From a virus: a stretch of 46,343 nt of DNA. Positions 3,109-31,797 of the stretch are shown one piece after another; the first letter of the stretch is position 1; every line of letters begins with the position of its first letter. A program made the position numbers and the translations under genes. The notes beneath the pieces were generated by a model. It saw nothing but the letters and a program-made list of their open reading frames with translations. It was not told the origin of the DNA and ran no database searches. The stretch is taken from UHGV virus genome UHGV-0181016; one strand, written 5' to 3'.

Positions 3109-3137
3109 TTGACGTAGATTGATCGGTGGTGCATAGT
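3109..3137 (+). promoter_or_regulatory. sigma70-type promoter, TTGACG-N17-CATAGT, a member of the conserved phage promoter family
   Basis: TTGACGTAGATTG is followed by GGTGGTG in the spacer. An inverted ATCTACAT lies downstream. It sits in the non-coding gap between diverging operons. Confidence 0.5.
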
Positions 3138-3281
3138 ATCTACATCAAGCGATGAGTGAGGAATAAGAGATGGGAATGTACATAGAATTGGTTTTGAAGT
3201 GTCAAATCAAGGGCGTGCATTGGTTGGACTTGGTATGAAGAGGAATTGCAGCCTACATTAATTATTTTTTAAGGTTAAATC

Positions 3282-3425
3282 ATGGTAATGGTCAAATTCA
3301 AAGAAAACGGACGCTGCGGAGTGTTCAATCTTGAGCAAATCAAAATCCGTCCGTGCTGCAAGGTGGTTGCGCCATTTGGTCTGGTGCAGATGCGCGAAGT
3401 TGAGATTGTTGAATACATTAAGTGA
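3282..3425 (+). CDS. hypothetical protein, 47 aa
   Basis: AAGG lies 8 nt upstream of the ATG. This is the first ORF after the promoter. Confidence 0.3.
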   Translation: MVMVKFKENGRCGVFNLEQIKIRPCCKVVAPFGLVQMREVEIVEYIK

Positions 3426-3589
3426 GGTTGGTGATGACTCAGCGCGAAGTTTACAGACTATGCTCGCGGCACTCCAGCAACTACTGGAAATCTACGACGA
3501 CCACTCCGGAAAAGTCTGGACAACATCAAGCAAGCGTCGCGCTCTGGATAATGCGCGTGCGGCGGTTAATAAGGCATTGGGAGAATAAA

Positions 3590-4075
3590 ATGAAACAATG
3601 TGATCTTTTTCGTGTTCTTAGTTATAACCCTGAATCTGGTGAATTCACTTGGATTAAATCAAGAAGACATGGGTTTAGCGGTAGAAAAGCTGGGACGATA
3701 AATGGGAAAGGTTACATACAGATCTGTATTGATGGAAAGCTTTATCTTGCGCACAGGCTTGCTCTTCTATACGTGACAGGAGAGATGCCAAAGGAGGTTG
3801 ATCATATTAACAGGGTGAGAGATGACAATAGATTATGCAACTTAAGGCCATGCACTTCATCTGAAAATAAGCACAACAAGGATATCACATCCAGAAACAA
3901 AACAGGGATAAAGGGCGTCAGCTGGTATCCTGCCGGAAATTCATGGCGAGTAAGGATATGCGTAAATAAAACACAGATTCATCTGGGCTACTACGAAGAC
4001 ATTGAGCTGGCAGAGCTTGTGTCGCAAGAGGCGAGAATTAAATACGCAGGAGATTTTAATTATGAAGCTTATTGA
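3590..4075 (+). CDS. HNH homing endonuclease with a C-terminal AP2-like DNA-binding domain. An alternative in-frame start at 3434 is possible.
   Basis: Motifs are GYIQICIDGKLYLAHRLALLY, EVDHINRVRDDNRLCNLRPCTSSEN for the HNH fold and GIKGVSWYPAGNSWRVRI for AP2. GGGAGA lies 6 nt upstream of the ATG at 3590. An overlapping frame-1 ORF ends at 3588. Confidence 0.7.
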   Translation: MKQCDLFRVLSYNPESGEFTWIKSRRHGFSGRKAGTINGKGYIQICIDGKLYLAHRLALLYVTGEMPKEVDHINRVRDDNRLCNLRPCTSSENKHNKDITSRNKTGIKGVSWYPAGNSWRVRICVNKTQIHLGYYEDIELAELVSQEARIKYAGDFNYEAY

Positions 4076-4744: not shown

Positions 4745-7091
<2,347 letters not shown>

Positions 7092-7097
7092 TCACCA

Positions 7098-7127
7098 ATA
7101 AAAAATCCCATCACGTTGGATGGGATT
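7098..7127 (-). terminator. rho-independent terminator on the minus strand, just upstream of the portal start
   Basis: The minus strand reads AATCCCATCcaacgtGATGGGATT followed by TTTTTATT. Confidence 0.6.
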
Positions 7128-7138
7128 ATAGCATGGTA

Positions 7139-7345
7139 TCAATAGTCGAAAGCTCGCCTGTGCATTATGTCATCGCTATGATGGAATACAGCATTTTCCA
7201 TCCTATCCCCTAGCACCAACCCTCTGCATTTTGCGTAAATCTGATACTGCTTGTCATTGAATTCATGATGGTTGTCAAACCAGATGCTCTCAAATCTTTT
7301 TCTAAGTTCAACTGCCATTTCGTGAAGATGTTTGCTGTCCATCAT
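7139..7345 (-). CDS. hypothetical protein, 68 aa, last gene of the moron
   Basis: ORF coupled to the upstream HigA-like gene by an ATGA overlap. Confidence 0.4.
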   Translation of the reverse strand: MMDSKHLHEMAVELRKRFESIWFDNHHEFNDKQYQIYAKCRGLVLGDRMENAVFHHSDDIMHRRAFDY

Positions 7346-7656
7346 TCCACCTTGTAATCAAAATCAAATTTAATTGGCTTCAAAGATGACAGTAAGCGAC
7401 CATTATCTGCGGTAAGTCTATTTAGGCTGTAATTGTTTTGCATATTCAACCATGACTCTGGCGACCTTCCAACAACAACGGACAATCTTACAGCCATGTC
7501 GGCATTTAAATCAGCCTTCTTGTTGATGAGACTGCTAACTGTTGACTGCGAAACCCCAAGTGCATCGGCCATTTCCTTAACGCCAATTCCGAATGGCTTC
7601 ATGAATGCCTCCAGCAGAAACTCGCCCGGGTGCATTGGATTTTTTATGCTCATCAC
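7342..7656 (-). CDS. HigA-family HTH (XRE) antitoxin-like protein with no cognate toxin gene
   Basis: NPMHPGEFLLEAFMKPFGIGVKEMADALGVSQSTVSSLINKKADLNADMAVRLSVVVGRSPESWLNMQ matches the HigA/VapI signature PGE.L.E.F....S...LA..LGV....V..I..GK..I..A.RL....G.S...WL.LQ. Confidence 0.7.
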   Translation of the reverse strand: MMSIKNPMHPGEFLLEAFMKPFGIGVKEMADALGVSQSTVSSLINKKADLNADMAVRLSVVVGRSPESWLNMQNNYSLNRLTADNGRLLSSLKPIKFDFDYKVE

Positions 7657-7838
7657 TCAATCTCCTCACCATTAACAAACTTCCGAAAAATATCAATCAA
7701 CTCCATCGCCTGACGTTTGCTTATATTAATTTCATCAGCGTCAACCTGAATGAATTTAATATCATCATCATAGCCAGCCATCTTGTATGAGAAAACCTCA
7801 ATTTCTCCATTGCCATTTGATTTTTCAATAATCATCAC
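7653..7838 (-). CDS. hypothetical acidic protein, 61 aa
   Basis: ORF with an ATGA overlap to the HigA-like gene. It is not RelE/HigB-like, being acidic rather than basic. Confidence 0.4.
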   Translation of the reverse strand: MMIIEKSNGNGEIEVFSYKMAGYDDDIKFIQVDADEINISKRQAMELIDIFRKFVNGEEIE

Positions 7839-7839
7839 A

Positions 7840-8046
7840 TCACCCCCTCAAAAAATCATTCTTGCAGCAGATACCCTTGTACCCGCGCTTCTCTTGCAGG
7901 TTAACGAAAACATCATCCAGAACGCGCAGCAAGAAGTCCTCGTCAATATCATACCGACGACAAATAACCTCGTCAGGCACACCGGCCCGTGCCAGTGAAT
8001 AAACCTGCTCTTTTTCCTCCTGTGTGAATCCTGCATAGCTGCGCAT
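7840..8046 (-). CDS. hypothetical protein, 68 aa, possible HTH
   Basis: First ORF after the promoter at about 8100. The segment VPDEVICRRYDIDEDFLLRVL looks HTH-like. Confidence 0.4.
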   Translation of the reverse strand: MRSYAGFTQEEKEQVYSLARAGVPDEVICRRYDIDEDFLLRVLDDVFVNLQEKRGYKGICCKNDFLRG

Positions 8047-8074
8047 AGTTATATCTCCGATAAGCCTGATGTAG

Positions 8075-8105
8075 ATTATACTATGCGCTCGATGTAGATT
8101 GTCAA
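8075..8105 (-). promoter_or_regulatory. family promoter on the minus strand, TTGACA-N16/19-TAGTATAAT
   Basis: The minus strand reads cacacTTGACAatctacatcgagcgcaTAGTATAATctacatc. It lies between the terL stop and the moron genes. Confidence 0.5.
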
Positions 8106-8121
8106 GTGTGCTGATGCAGAT

Positions 8122-9429
8122 TTATCGCCTGCGCCGGATTAGCATTGCTGCCATTGGCCGCACAAGTGGGAACTTATTATAAATGTAATAATCAGCCGCA
8201 TCGTTCGGGTGGTCTTTGTCGTGAGTTTTGTCTGGCTCACCCTGCTTGTTGTAAATCTGCTGCTCTCTCGCCTCAGTGTAGACTGGGCACAACTTTGTGT
8301 TTACCTTGTATCTGCGCTCGCCTTCAGCGTTGCAGAACATTGCGTTAACGGAGTTGATACGGTCCCTGACTGGTGGGTTCTTGCTGTCAGCCATAATATG
8401 AAAGCCAGCGTCTCTCAACAAGGCTATATCAGATGTGCCAGCGTTCACGGTTTTTCTGCTGCCACCTGATGCATCGGGATAAACGTAAATTTCACACAGT
8501 TTCTCAAACTCACCACTCGATGTTTCCCTCCACAGGCGCTGTTTGATTAACCGAATCATTTCTGGCGTATCGTAAGCACCAAGTATCTCACCAACTGCGA
8601 TAGGGTCGCCATCCCTTTCAACATGAATAATCGCAGACATCTTGCCAACGTTGAAGTCCATACCGACGTGTGCTGGCTCCCCTGCCTTGTACTCCTCGTC
8701 ACTGTGATTAAGATTCCTGTCGAATTGAGGATAAACAGTGCCAGACGTAAGGTTTACAAACTCACCCTGCAGATAGGCTTCAATGAGTTGCGGGGGATAG
8801 CTATCACGCAGTGACTGAACGTAATCATCAGGCAGGAAGGGGTTACTCATCGTGCTTGCCTGAACCATTTCATACCCATCCTTTTTGTTCTTCACCCATC
8901 TGTCATAAACAAACCGGAACCCCTCTGGGGTTGAGAATACACCAACGGTATTCATCGGCTTACCTGATGTGTCAGTATATGTTCTCGGTCGCTGACGGTT
9001 ACGGGCAATTATTTTTATCCATGCCTCAGATGCGTGCTCTTGCTTAAGGGTGTCAATTTCGTCAATCTTTGCACGGAACGACTCGTAGCCAACTATTCGC
9101 GCCGGATTATCAAGAGTCCTGAGAACGAAATCACCCATCTGCCCCGATGAGGTGTAGATTATGTTCTCTGCCTTGTTGTATTTATATCTGACACCCCAGT
9201 CGATTAACTTCTCCTCCATGCGGGGTGCGAGAATGAGACGCACCAGGTCATAGGTCGGCTGATACATGGCTATGAGTGAGTCAGAACCACCTTCGAGACT
9301 ATCAAGCAATGCAGAGTTACACATAGTCTCTGACTTCCCAGTACCAAAGCCAGCGATAAAAGCAGGGAATTTACAATTGAGGTTCATGAACCTTGCCTGA
9401 GGCTCGGTTAGTGTCATCTTAATTTCCAT
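8122..9429 (-). CDS. terL: terminase large subunit
   Basis: Walker A GFGTGKS sits in the N-terminal ATPase domain and there is a C-terminal RNaseH-like nuclease region. The size is 435 aa and it lies next to terS. Confidence 0.85.
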   Translation of the reverse strand: MEIKMTLTEPQARFMNLNCKFPAFIAGFGTGKSETMCNSALLDSLEGGSDSLIAMYQPTYDLVRLILAPRMEEKLIDWGVRYKYNKAENIIYTSSGQMGDFVLRTLDNPARIVGYESFRAKIDEIDTLKQEHASEAWIKIIARNRQRPRTYTDTSGKPMNTVGVFSTPEGFRFVYDRWVKNKKDGYEMVQASTMSNPFLPDDYVQSLRDSYPPQLIEAYLQGEFVNLTSGTVYPQFDRNLNHSDEEYKAGEPAHVGMDFNVGKMSAIIHVERDGDPIAVGEILGAYDTPEMIRLIKQRLWRETSSGEFEKLCEIYVYPDASGGSRKTVNAGTSDIALLRDAGFHIMADSKNPPVRDRINSVNAMFCNAEGERRYKVNTKLCPVYTEAREQQIYNKQGEPDKTHDKDHPNDAADYYIYNKFPLVRPMAAMLIRRRR

Positions 9430-9931
9430 GATTGCTAAACTCCATGAACATCTTATCAGCCGCTAACTTATACGCCTCATGTGCAAGTTCCGGCGTATCA
9501 AAAAAACCAAGGTGAATCTTCCTGCCGTTAAATTTTATGTAAGCCTCGTACTTCCCTGTAGCCTTGAAAAGGCTCACCCCCTTAAATCCGGAAGTATTAT
9601 GTGATGGTCTATTCATATTCCATTTATTGTTAGATGACGTTGCCAATCTTAGGTTTGATATGTCGTTATTTGATGGGTTTGTATCTATATGATCGACCTC
9701 CATACCTTCCGGGATTGGTCCGTTAAACATCTCCCATATAATGCGGTGCGCAAGTAGCAGCTTCCCGTAAACGCGCACATACCTGTAACCGTTCCTTCCT
9801 ATGTTGCCAGCCTCCTTACCAGCATATTTATTTTTGTGTACTGAGTATCCTCTTTTGGTTTTGAATGATTCCTTATTGCGTAAAACCCAATACAGCTTAC
9901 CATTGGCGTAACGAAAATAATCTTCATGCAT
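9419..9931 (-). CDS. HNH-AP2 homing endonuclease inserted between terS and terL
   Basis: Motifs are GYRYVRVYGKLLLAHRIIWEM, EVDHIDTNPSNNDISNLRLATSSNN and GFKGVSLFKATGKYEAYIKFNGRKIHLG. It is a paralogue of the 3590 HNH. Confidence 0.8.
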   Translation of the reverse strand: MHEDYFRYANGKLYWVLRNKESFKTKRGYSVHKNKYAGKEAGNIGRNGYRYVRVYGKLLLAHRIIWEMFNGPIPEGMEVDHIDTNPSNNDISNLRLATSSNNKWNMNRPSHNTSGFKGVSLFKATGKYEAYIKFNGRKIHLGFFDTPELAHEAYKLAADKMFMEFSNHGN

Positions 9932-9954
9932 ATGAACCTCCGCGATTTACTCAA

Positions 9955-9966
9955 TCATATCACAAA
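9955..9966 (-). promoter_or_regulatory. extended -10-like element reading CCTTTGTGATATGAT on the minus strand, upstream of the HNH
   Basis: TGnTATgAT lies about 23 nt upstream of the ATG. Nearly the same box precedes terS. Confidence 0.35.
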
Positions 9967-9976
9967 GGTTCGTGTT

Positions 9977-10432
9977 TTACTTACTCTTATCTGCACTAAT
10001 CACCTCTATCTGCACCTTATGGATTGCACCATCACCATCTGCGCCTTCCGATTCAGGCTTATCTCTCCATAGTTTAGGCTGCCTGTTTTTTAACCAGAAA
10101 ATCATTGATGTGGGGTCTGGAGGGTATCTTTTTATTGTTGGCGTAATTACTATTTCACCATTAACCGCCTTAATGTCGTCTTCTGGATGCTCATAACCAG
10201 TGGCCCTACTGAACAGAGCTTGAGCAACTCGCGCATCTGCAATTTCCTTTCCTCGCCTTAAGGACTCAAGAAACGACGGGTGTTTGTGCTTCCATGCATT
10301 TATTGTTTGCTCGCTAACATCAAAGAAGGTAGCAAGCTGCTTATCAGTAGCGCCAAGCAGGCAATAGTTGTACGCCTGCTCGTCGTACTCAGATTTGTAT
10401 TCTGTCGGTCGCCCGATTGGTTTATCTGACAT
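9977..10432 (-). CDS. terS: terminase small subunit
   Basis: 151 aa with an HTH-like N-terminus containing LGATDKQLATFFDVSEQTINAWK. It sits immediately upstream of HNH and terL. The RBS is AGAGGTG. Confidence 0.65.
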   Translation of the reverse strand: MSDKPIGRPTEYKSEYDEQAYNYCLLGATDKQLATFFDVSEQTINAWKHKHPSFLESLRRGKEIADARVAQALFSRATGYEHPEDDIKAVNGEIVITPTIKRYPPDPTSMIFWLKNRQPKLWRDKPESEGADGDGAIHKVQIEVISADKSK

Positions 10433-10456
10433 AATTCACCTCTTGATATTTATGTT

Positions 10457-10468
10457 TATTCTATCACA
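10457..10468 (-). promoter_or_regulatory. extended -10-like element reading CCTTTGTGATAGAAT, upstream of terS
   Basis: TGnTAgAAT lies about 24 nt upstream of the terS ATG. It is a paralogue of the box at 9955. Confidence 0.35.
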
Positions 10469-10472
10469 AAGG

Positions 10473-10501
10473 CAAAAAAAAGAACCCGCACAAGGCGGGT
10501 T
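10473..10501 (-). terminator. strong rho-independent terminator on the minus strand, ending the early micro-gene operon
   Basis: The minus strand reads AACCCGCcttgtGCGGGTT followed by CTTTTTTTTG. Confidence 0.75.
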
Positions 10502-10545
10502 AAATGTTGGGAGATGATATGAGTGAGGCAATGGTGGTTATGTGC

Positions 10546-10719
10546 TTATTGTACACCATCATTGTCACGCTTGCCAGCATAGCACCATGCGTTTTCTGTT
10601 TGCGTCTGCACATGAACAATTTCAAGAGCATCCTGGAATGTCTTTGCCACCTTCGCGATGAAATCGTCCAGTTCGTGCTGTTTGGCGAGATTCCACACTT
10701 TCTGCTTAGTTGTTTGCAT
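10546..10719 (-). CDS. hypothetical protein, 57 aa
   Basis: GAGGG lies 9 nt upstream of the ATG at 10719. Its start is overlapped in another frame by the ORF at 10706-10885. Confidence 0.35.
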   Translation of the reverse strand: MQTTKQKVWNLAKQHELDDFIAKVAKTFQDALEIVHVQTQTENAWCYAGKRDNDGVQ

Positions 10720-12430: not shown

Positions 12431-12459
12431 AATCTACATCAGTTGTGATTCTACGTCAA
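12431..12459 (-). promoter_or_regulatory. family promoter on the minus strand, TTGACG-N17-TAGATT
   Basis: The minus strand reads catgTTGACGtagaatcacaactgatgTAGATTgaac. It drives the leftward early micro-gene operon. Confidence 0.55.
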
Positions 12460-31728: not shown

Positions 31729-31768
31729 CCTGAATTTGACTGATGTTGATTATATCATCTCAGTGGTG

Positions 31769-31797
31769 TTGACACCTGTTAGGTGGTGATGTAGATT
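31769..31797 (+). promoter_or_regulatory. family promoter, TTGACA-N17-TAGATT
   Basis: The sequence reads gtgTTGACAcctgttaggtggtgatgTAGATT. Confidence 0.55.

Follow-up and report, generated by a model that had tools for sequence, protein, structure and literature searches.

A toxin-less HigA-family gene between terL and portal

The window analyzed in this study is the whole 46,343-nucleotide (nt) stretch of the virus genome UHGV-0181016. Between its large terminase gene (terL) and its portal gene lies one gap of 1,033 nt, which contains one promoter, four small genes and one terminator on the minus strand. The third small gene (7656/7653..7342, minus strand) is the subject of this report; the other three are termed g1, g2 and g4. 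Homologues of the third protein begin with MSIKNP, therefore we place its start at the ATG at 7653, which gives a protein of 103 amino acids (aa). Alignment with homologues also places the starts of g2 and g4, at MIIEK and MDxKHL, respectively.

Judged from its sequence, the gene at 7653..7342 is a homologue of the HigA-family (GraA-like) antitoxins. The original prediction had read a HigA signature in it, and the hidden Markov model (HMM) search that we ran places the protein inside this family: it scored 97.2 bits against TIGR02607 ("HigA family addiction module antitoxin"), for which the cutoff is 47.7, and covered profile positions 2–78 of 81. It also matched PF01381 (31.5 vs cutoff 23), with the helix-turn-helix (HTH) intact, and phrog_1381 ("plasmid antitoxin with HTH domain", 7e-24), which belongs to the category "moron, auxiliary metabolic gene and host takeover". 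The best solved homologue of the phage HigA is Pseudomonas putida GraA (6F8S, 6e-17); the HigA proteins of P. aeruginosa (7e-15), Escherichia coli CFT073 (2ICP, 2e-14) and Proteus vulgaris (4MCX, 5e-11) were also recovered.

In the closest bacterial relatives, HigA nearly always follows its toxin gene. From a scan of one genome per GTDB species, the 80 best loci were retained; their HigA proteins share 41–58% identity with the phage HigA. A canonical HigB, typically 92 aa in length, lies directly upstream of HigA in at least 63 of the 76 assessable relatives, and the two genes overlap by 1–4 nt; one representative HigB was confirmed as a PF05015 protein (99.8 bits). In the phage operon, the position held by HigB in bacterial higBA operons is occupied by g2. 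One HigB HMM, built from 62 toxins adjoining the bacterial HigA homologues, recovered its controls at 7e-66 and 4e-33. Applied to all six translated frames of the 46-kb window, the HMM found no HigB (best E=1.2), and a HigB elsewhere in the genome was therefore rejected.

The flanking small proteins do not resemble a toxin either. No match to g1, g2 or g4 was found in Pfam, NCBIfam or PADLOC, and profile–profile alignment to HigB by hhalign gave a probability of 0.2% for either of the g2 and g4 families. The AlphaFold2 (AF2) model of g2 consists of one β-hairpin and one C-terminal helix (low confidence; predicted local distance difference test, pLDDT, 59), and that of g4 consists of three helices (low confidence, pLDDT 64); a PDB fold search with the g4 model gave no match. 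Both low-confidence models are unlike the α/β RelE fold. Among 1.84 billion proteins, only 11 representative clusters match g2, whose family is limited to these phages. On these grounds, and as both families occur mostly in phages that lack HigA, g2 and g4 were rejected as hidden toxins. The absence of a RelE/HigB-like toxin, claimed in the original prediction, is thus borne out by the family HMMs, hhalign and the six-frame search; the RelE-fold toxin among the neighbouring small proteins that would have made the locus an ordinary toxin–antitoxin (TA) system was not found by HMM, by profile–profile comparison or in the low-confidence predicted secondary structures.

HigA as optional cargo of a conserved operon

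The window falls among the virulent siphophages related to Sa179lw (Buchananvirus), Sf11, BS5 (Skatevirus) and Akira, with ∼90% identity across ∼75% of a 24-kb stretch. It is a virulent phage of E. coli/Salmonella-type hosts, in a Buchananvirus/Skatevirus/Akiravirus-type group. Neither an integrase nor an annotated toxin is present in the nearest fully annotated relative; the former is in line with the lytic lifestyle that had been assumed.

Among the 44 related loci whose terL–portal gap we catalogued, nearly all have the same promoter, g1 and terminator, and in no member of this phage group does terL directly adjoin portal. The g1 protein is 90–100% identical across 34 IMG/VR loci, with a ratio of nonsynonymous to synonymous substitution rates (dN/dS) of 0.03; its conservation is far above that of its neighbours. 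The g2 family (F1) occurs in 31 of the 44 loci, of which only nine also have HigA, and the gene that usually follows g2 is a member of family F0 (62–69 aa). Family F4, to which g4 belongs, occurs in 15 loci, mostly without HigA. In Akira and vB_CECAV_048, g2 is present at 82–84% identity and HigA is absent; Akira also has g4, at 82%. HigA itself is found in nine loci (six distinct), always at one boundary, just after the g2-family gene; it is either placed between g2 and F0 (BS5 and the L008 locus) or found where F0 is absent (the window and Sa179lw). In all the phage HigA loci that we examined, the gene is part of the terL–portal operon. Among the elements of the operon, HigA alone is sporadic, an optional cargo at a fixed gene boundary.

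These observations change the picture of a four-gene moron wedged between two normally adjacent genes. The unit does have its own promoter and terminator, as a moron should; it is not, as a unit, absent from close relatives, where only HigA comes and goes. Since the gap, the promoter, g1 and the terminator occur across the relatives, the four genes do not form a single insertion. Nor are g2 and g4 the HigA-specific partners that they had been taken for, because both families occur in many relatives without HigA.

The g1 gene (8046..7840, minus strand; 68 aa, phrog_13301) is the first gene of the operon and encodes a backbone protein. It is followed by g2 (7838/7835..7653, minus strand; 60/61 aa, phrog_13627), for which the ATG at 7835, giving 60 aa rather than the listed 61 aa, is the more likely start by alignment, and, after HigA, by g4 (7345/7342..7139, minus strand; 67/68 aa, phrog_17303), the last gene. 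g2 is acidic (14 Asp/Glu vs 7 Lys/Arg), and g4 is rich in histidine (7 His). Open reading frame (ORF) analysis agrees with the coordinates and descriptions given earlier, including those of a 61-aa acidic and a 68-aa His-rich protein. TGATG stop/start overlaps couple g2, HigA and g4.

The boundary between g2 and HigA is formed by one 26-nt linker, AATGGTGAGGAGATTGAGTGATGAGC (7673..7648, minus strand), which comprises the end of g2, the Shine–Dalgarno motif GAGGAG and the TGATG overlap with HigA. It is conserved in ∼25 relatives irrespective of whether the next gene encodes F0, HigA, a membrane protein or an HNH endonuclease. The 3′ ends of the HigA genes are look-alikes of the same linker, which accounts for the short acidic C-terminal tail of HigA. 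This arrangement suggests that cassettes are exchanged or shuffled at the shared linker.

The operon promoter is of sigma-70 type (TTGACA-16-TAGTAT, 8105..8078, minus strand); it matches the consensus at 10 of 12 positions, overlaps one TATAAT and is followed by the motif ATCTACATCA. It is the top-scoring promoter-like site in 5500–10600, a region in which such sites are not enriched as a class (six found vs 8.5 expected). The call is supported by its conservation: the promoter is near-identical, with hardly a base changed, across ∼40 related loci, whether or not they carry HigA. The terminator is an intrinsic one (7127..7104, minus strand), with a 9-bp stem, a 6-nt loop and a T-run to ∼7098; it ends ∼10 nt upstream of the portal ATG. 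Its stem variants among the relatives keep complementarity (CCCATC/GATGGG, CCCTC/GAGGG and CCCC/GGGG). The promoter and the terminator of the unit, both part of the original prediction, were thus found by our scan and are conserved in the relatives.

Two further elements were noted at these sites. The combination of a −10 element followed by ATCTACATCA forms a promoter family, with members at 8068–8122 (minus), 3111–3146 (plus), 31742–31797 (minus) and 12431–12440 (plus) and extra copies over the −35; three exact copies of ATCTACATCA at 22–23 nt spacing span the operon promoter. ATCTACATCA may mark the site of a common regulator or the initiation region. The other element is a perfect extended −10, TGCTATAAT, at 7125–7133 (minus strand), which overlaps the 5′ arm of the terminator at 7127 and is kept in nearly all relatives. 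A transcript from it would begin ∼7 nt downstream, inside the hairpin, and would therefore escape termination; TGCTATAAT may be a portal promoter nested in the terminator.

The operon is flanked upstream by terL (9429..8122, minus strand; PF03237 and PF17289) and downstream by the portal gene (7088..5676, minus strand; PF06381 and phrog_146). terS (10432..9977, minus strand) is separated from terL by the gene of one HNH homing endonuclease (9931..9419, minus strand). This gene, which overlaps the terL start, and a second one at 3422–4075 (plus strand) encode HNH_3 and AP2-domain homing endonucleases; because terS and terL overlap directly in Sa179lw, the former is regarded as an insertion. Comparison of the loci L002, L007, L008 and L010 with positions 8122–9429 of the window revealed two unrelated large terminases among relatives that share the portal: one 435-aa Terminase_6 protein (the window, Sa179lw and Akira) and one 474-aa Terminase_3 protein (BS5, Bas79 and others). 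This places the variable operon at a mosaic breakpoint. Other cargo of the terL–portal gap includes a PAPS-reductase-family gene, a gene of the Vut_1 (queuosine-precursor transporter) family and a 162-aa gene annotated as 'peptidase HslV family', which has no match in Pfam; these were seen in L008/L009 (1652–2464, minus), L010 (1898–2362, minus) and L003 (1071–1559). In the Salmonella phage BUCT_XGG_PSM_3377, the portal gene (L127, PQ465216.1, 1268–2671) is mis-annotated as 'anti-CBASS protein Acb1 family protein'; the idea that the locus is an anti-defence island, which had drawn on this name, was rejected.

Age, putative toxin-binding face and possible DNA binding of the phage HigA clade

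The protein database contains 27 clusters of the phage HigA, 61–98% identical to the window protein, none of them on a contig larger than 48.6 kb. The 27 clusters contain full-length ORFs. The next matches share 47–58% identity, and several of them are named as bacterial HigA. Within the phage clade, pairwise dN/dS is 0.08–0.20, and the synonymous differences (pS) between subclades reach 0.7–0.95, which corresponds to saturation. By these measures, the clade is an old one that evolves under purifying selection. A blastn search of 5,426 complete E. coli genomes with the DNA of g2-HigA-g4 gave no match, and the closest enterobacterial HigA, encoded on 3.5–3.7-kb ColE1-type plasmids of E. coli and Klebsiella, is 52% identical. 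A recent capture from an E. coli host was rejected on the basis of these two results and the saturated synonymous sites. The HigBA system of the ColE1-type plasmids is present in 59 of the 5,426 genomes; HigA homologues in general were found on 797 plasmids, including 159 of E. coli, 53 of Klebsiella and 34 of Salmonella. In the one plasmid that we examined (L126, NZ_CP029114.1, 883–1794), a PF05015 HigB is divergent from HigA, 336 bp apart, with the palindrome TTGCACATTGTGCAA upstream of higA; such a layout is unlike the canonical co-directional higB-higA.

In the structure of the GraTA complex, GraT binds the GraA face that is opposite to the DNA-binding face (PMC6393540). The GraA residues in contact with GraT are R7, I9, E13, I14, E18, F19, M23, L63, D64, T66, F69, N72 and L73, and GraA keeps GraT off the ribosome instead of blocking its active site (PMC6393540). 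Among the 13 equivalent positions of the phage clade, which overlap the signature motifs of the family, nine are invariant. The mean entropy of the 13 positions is 0.25, vs 0.60 for the remainder of the protein (one-sided Mann–Whitney p=0.03), a difference to be read with the same overlap in mind. The HTH segment (residues 24–47) has an entropy of 0.72, vs 0.21 and 0.33 for the two segments of the toxin face. This conservation pattern fits a retained ability to bind toxin.

The promoters of the bacterial relatives are spanned by an operator, GTTGCG-N5-CGCAAC, that is strikingly conserved. In the window, this operator does not occur beyond chance (25 matches, all with 2–3 mismatches, vs 21 expected); the form TTGCNC-N-GNGCAA and a palindrome with 6-nt arms are absent from the window as well. 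We rejected HigA as an autoregulator of the operon promoter, because this promoter is the same in relatives without HigA and the window has no family operator. Direct repeats AATCTRCATC over the promoter (8068–8122) were also considered as a HigA site and rejected, as they belong to a promoter family that is present at other phage promoters and in HigA-less relatives. The substitution R42S in the recognition helix was dropped as a sign of lost DNA binding; the residue is equivalent to GraA N43, which has no reported DNA contact. Any DNA binding by the ancestral specificity would thus be directed to targets in the host or in host plasmids, not in the phage.

Possible function and comparison with known systems

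We tentatively favour the possibility that the phage HigA serves in counter-defence against HigB-type toxins of the host. In the proposed mechanism, host RNA polymerase would transcribe the conserved small operon from its promoter, independently of the late genes. Infection would deplete the labile host antitoxin and thereby free ribosome-dependent RNases of the HigB type (PF05015), whose genes lie on plasmids, in prophages or on chromosomes of the host. The phage HigA would replace the depleted antitoxin, binding HigB by the face that GraA uses for GraT, and would so hold the RNases off the ribosome; it may additionally bind host higBA operators. The timing of expression, the binding of any host HigB and the effect on plating are what we infer in this scheme. 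Possible targets exist in the host range, where plasmids carry HigA homologues and the one plasmid checked pairs HigA with a PF05015 HigB. Restriction of lambda and other coliphages has been described for one HigBAC system of an E. coli prophage (bioRxiv 10.1101/2024.02.24.581848), and orphan DarG-like antitoxins of T4-like phages and chimalliviruses neutralize DarTG (PMC11825919, PMC13309987). Taken as analogies, these precedents for counter-defence appear real but indirect. Further points in favour of counter-defence are the family membership, the missing toxin in a family whose bacterial members nearly always have one upstream, the purifying selection in an old clade, the conservation at the positions of the toxin face, the lack of a family operator in the phage, and the toxin-less HigA genes that recur, apparently independently, in ICP1, Aes012, ZCKP1 and FBKp24.

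Several points weigh against counter-defence. The phage clade is only 41–58% identical to any bacterial HigA that we found, and the closest enterobacterial plasmid system is confined to just the 59 E. coli genomes mentioned above. As type II antitoxins tend to be specific to their cognate toxin, cross-neutralization at ∼50% identity is uncertain. HigA is rare in the phage group (six distinct among 44 loci; three isolates among 157 related records) and is therefore dispensable. The 'toxin-binding' positions overlap the motifs NPMHPGEF and GRSPESW and could be conserved for folding. In addition, our literature search for any phage HigA, including that of ICP1, found no paper. A broader version of counter-defence was also considered: toxin-less HigA proteins in several unrelated virulent lineages (this group, ICP1, T4-like and jumbo phages) might form a general anti-HigB counter-defence, selected for broad cross-reactivity with HigB RNases of hosts, plasmids and prophages, including those of chaperone-dependent HigBAC systems. 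We regard this extension as unlikely at present.

The principal rival holds that the protein has lost its role with a toxin and was recruited as an XRE-type regulator, either of host genes or, through a diverged operator, of phage genes. Some bacterial HigA proteins do regulate genes beyond their own operon. The intact HTH (PF01381) is in keeping with such a role, as are the conserved positions equivalent to the DNA-contacting residues of GraA, among which S38 and S41 are invariant, and the recognition helix SQSTVS(S/R)LIN, which is close to the SQSTLSRLLN of the E. coli plasmid HigA. Furthermore, GraA-type antitoxins repress alone, without toxin (PMC6393540). However, the family-type operator palindrome is found nowhere in the 46-kb window, the operon promoter does not differ between relatives that have HigA and those that lack it, and the HTH of the phage clade is less conserved than its toxin-binding segments, as the entropies given above indicate. 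As far as the sequence can tell, the phage genome contains no family-type operator, and only this weakens a recruited repressor; on balance we consider this role doubtful.

Two further explanations were weighed, and both appear very improbable. The first one is a complete non-canonical TA pair, in which HigA would neutralize g2 or g4 as a new small toxin. g2 stands where HigB would be and, outside Sa179lw, is translationally coupled to HigA at all loci that carry HigA, and g4 is coupled to HigA in the window; however, this coupling is explained by the gene-boundary linker common to all cassettes. Both families are found mostly in HigA-less loci, where F0 usually follows g2. As described above, neither g2 nor g4 matches a toxin family or resembles HigB by hhalign, and the 60-aa acidic g2, like g4, is modelled, with low confidence, as a few secondary-structure elements; the g2 family is moreover confined to this phage group. 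The other one is a neutral passenger: the phage would have picked up a higBA locus and lost the toxin, and the part that remains would serve no function there. The rarity of HigA among relatives and the lack of both partner and operator would be expected of such a remnant, but strong purifying selection over saturated synonymous divergence, full-length ORFs in 27 protein clusters and a HigA 3′ end adapted to the coupling linker of the operon would not.

If counter-defence is the true function, orphan-antitoxin counter-defence, so far represented by DarG-like enzymes and Dmd, would extend to the most common type II TA class, and ordinary HigBA loci would gain indirect evidence of acting against phages; in the broader, general anti-HigB version, HigBA modules would be widespread abortive-infection defences. 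The phage clade would also provide a natural set of antitoxins that evolved away from their cognate toxin, useful for studies of TA specificity. The terL–portal operon, as a cassette-exchange site with a shared linker, matters for the annotation and engineering of therapy-candidate phages. At present, the HigA gene is an accessory gene that is already annotated and uncharacterized.

The phage HigA resembles the GraA/HigA proteins of HigB-HigA (GraTA) systems (6F8S/6F8H, 6JPI, 4MCX; TIGR02607) in fold family and in size (∼100 aa); it shares with them the N-terminal motif NPxHPGE, the motif GRxPExW and the intact XRE HTH. The positions equivalent to the GraT face, which overlap the family motifs, are conserved in the phage clade. 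Different from the bacterial members, to which its identity is at most 58% among those found, it has no HigB next to it or in the genome, no operator palindrome and no promoter of its own; it is part of a phage operon and is coupled to unrelated small genes. The same gene is present in the same terL–portal operon, downstream of a g2-family gene, in Escherichia phage vB_EcoS Sa179lw (gp62, 96%), Salmonella phage BS5 (gp72, 63%) and Klebsiella phage VLCpiS13d (gp05, 61%). Sa179lw differs in having one 76-aa membrane protein between g2 and HigA, plus extra genes, whereas BS5 has the usual F0 gene after HigA. Toxin-less HigA genes are also found in accessory or early regions of Vibrio phage ICP1, Aeromonas phage Aes012 and the Klebsiella phages ZCKP1 and FBKp24; no HigB lies within 1.5 kb of them. 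They share 32–58% identity with the phage HigA and are located in unrelated genomes and loci, apparently as independent acquisitions.

T4 Dmd, acting against RnlA/LsoA, is a phage antitoxin analogue that functions in counter-defence. The orphan DarG-like antitoxins (PMC11825919, PMC13309987) likewise represent virulent phages that carry a homologue of a host antitoxin in the absence of the toxin. However, the DarG-like cases are proven by genetics, and these proteins act enzymatically on the product of the toxin; for the phage HigA, stoichiometric binding to a toxin other than its own would be required. Counter-defence by orphan antitoxins is thus an established idea for other families, and the gene itself has been annotated before: the 96% identical copy of Sa179lw is named 'plasmid antitoxin with HTH domain', and the ICP1 records name their copy HigA. 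What is new here is that the gene is an orphan genome-wide and that HigA alone is mobile at a fixed linker site. By sequence comparison, the phage clade also appears to be ancient and under purifying selection, and to have kept the positions of the toxin face while the operator is absent.

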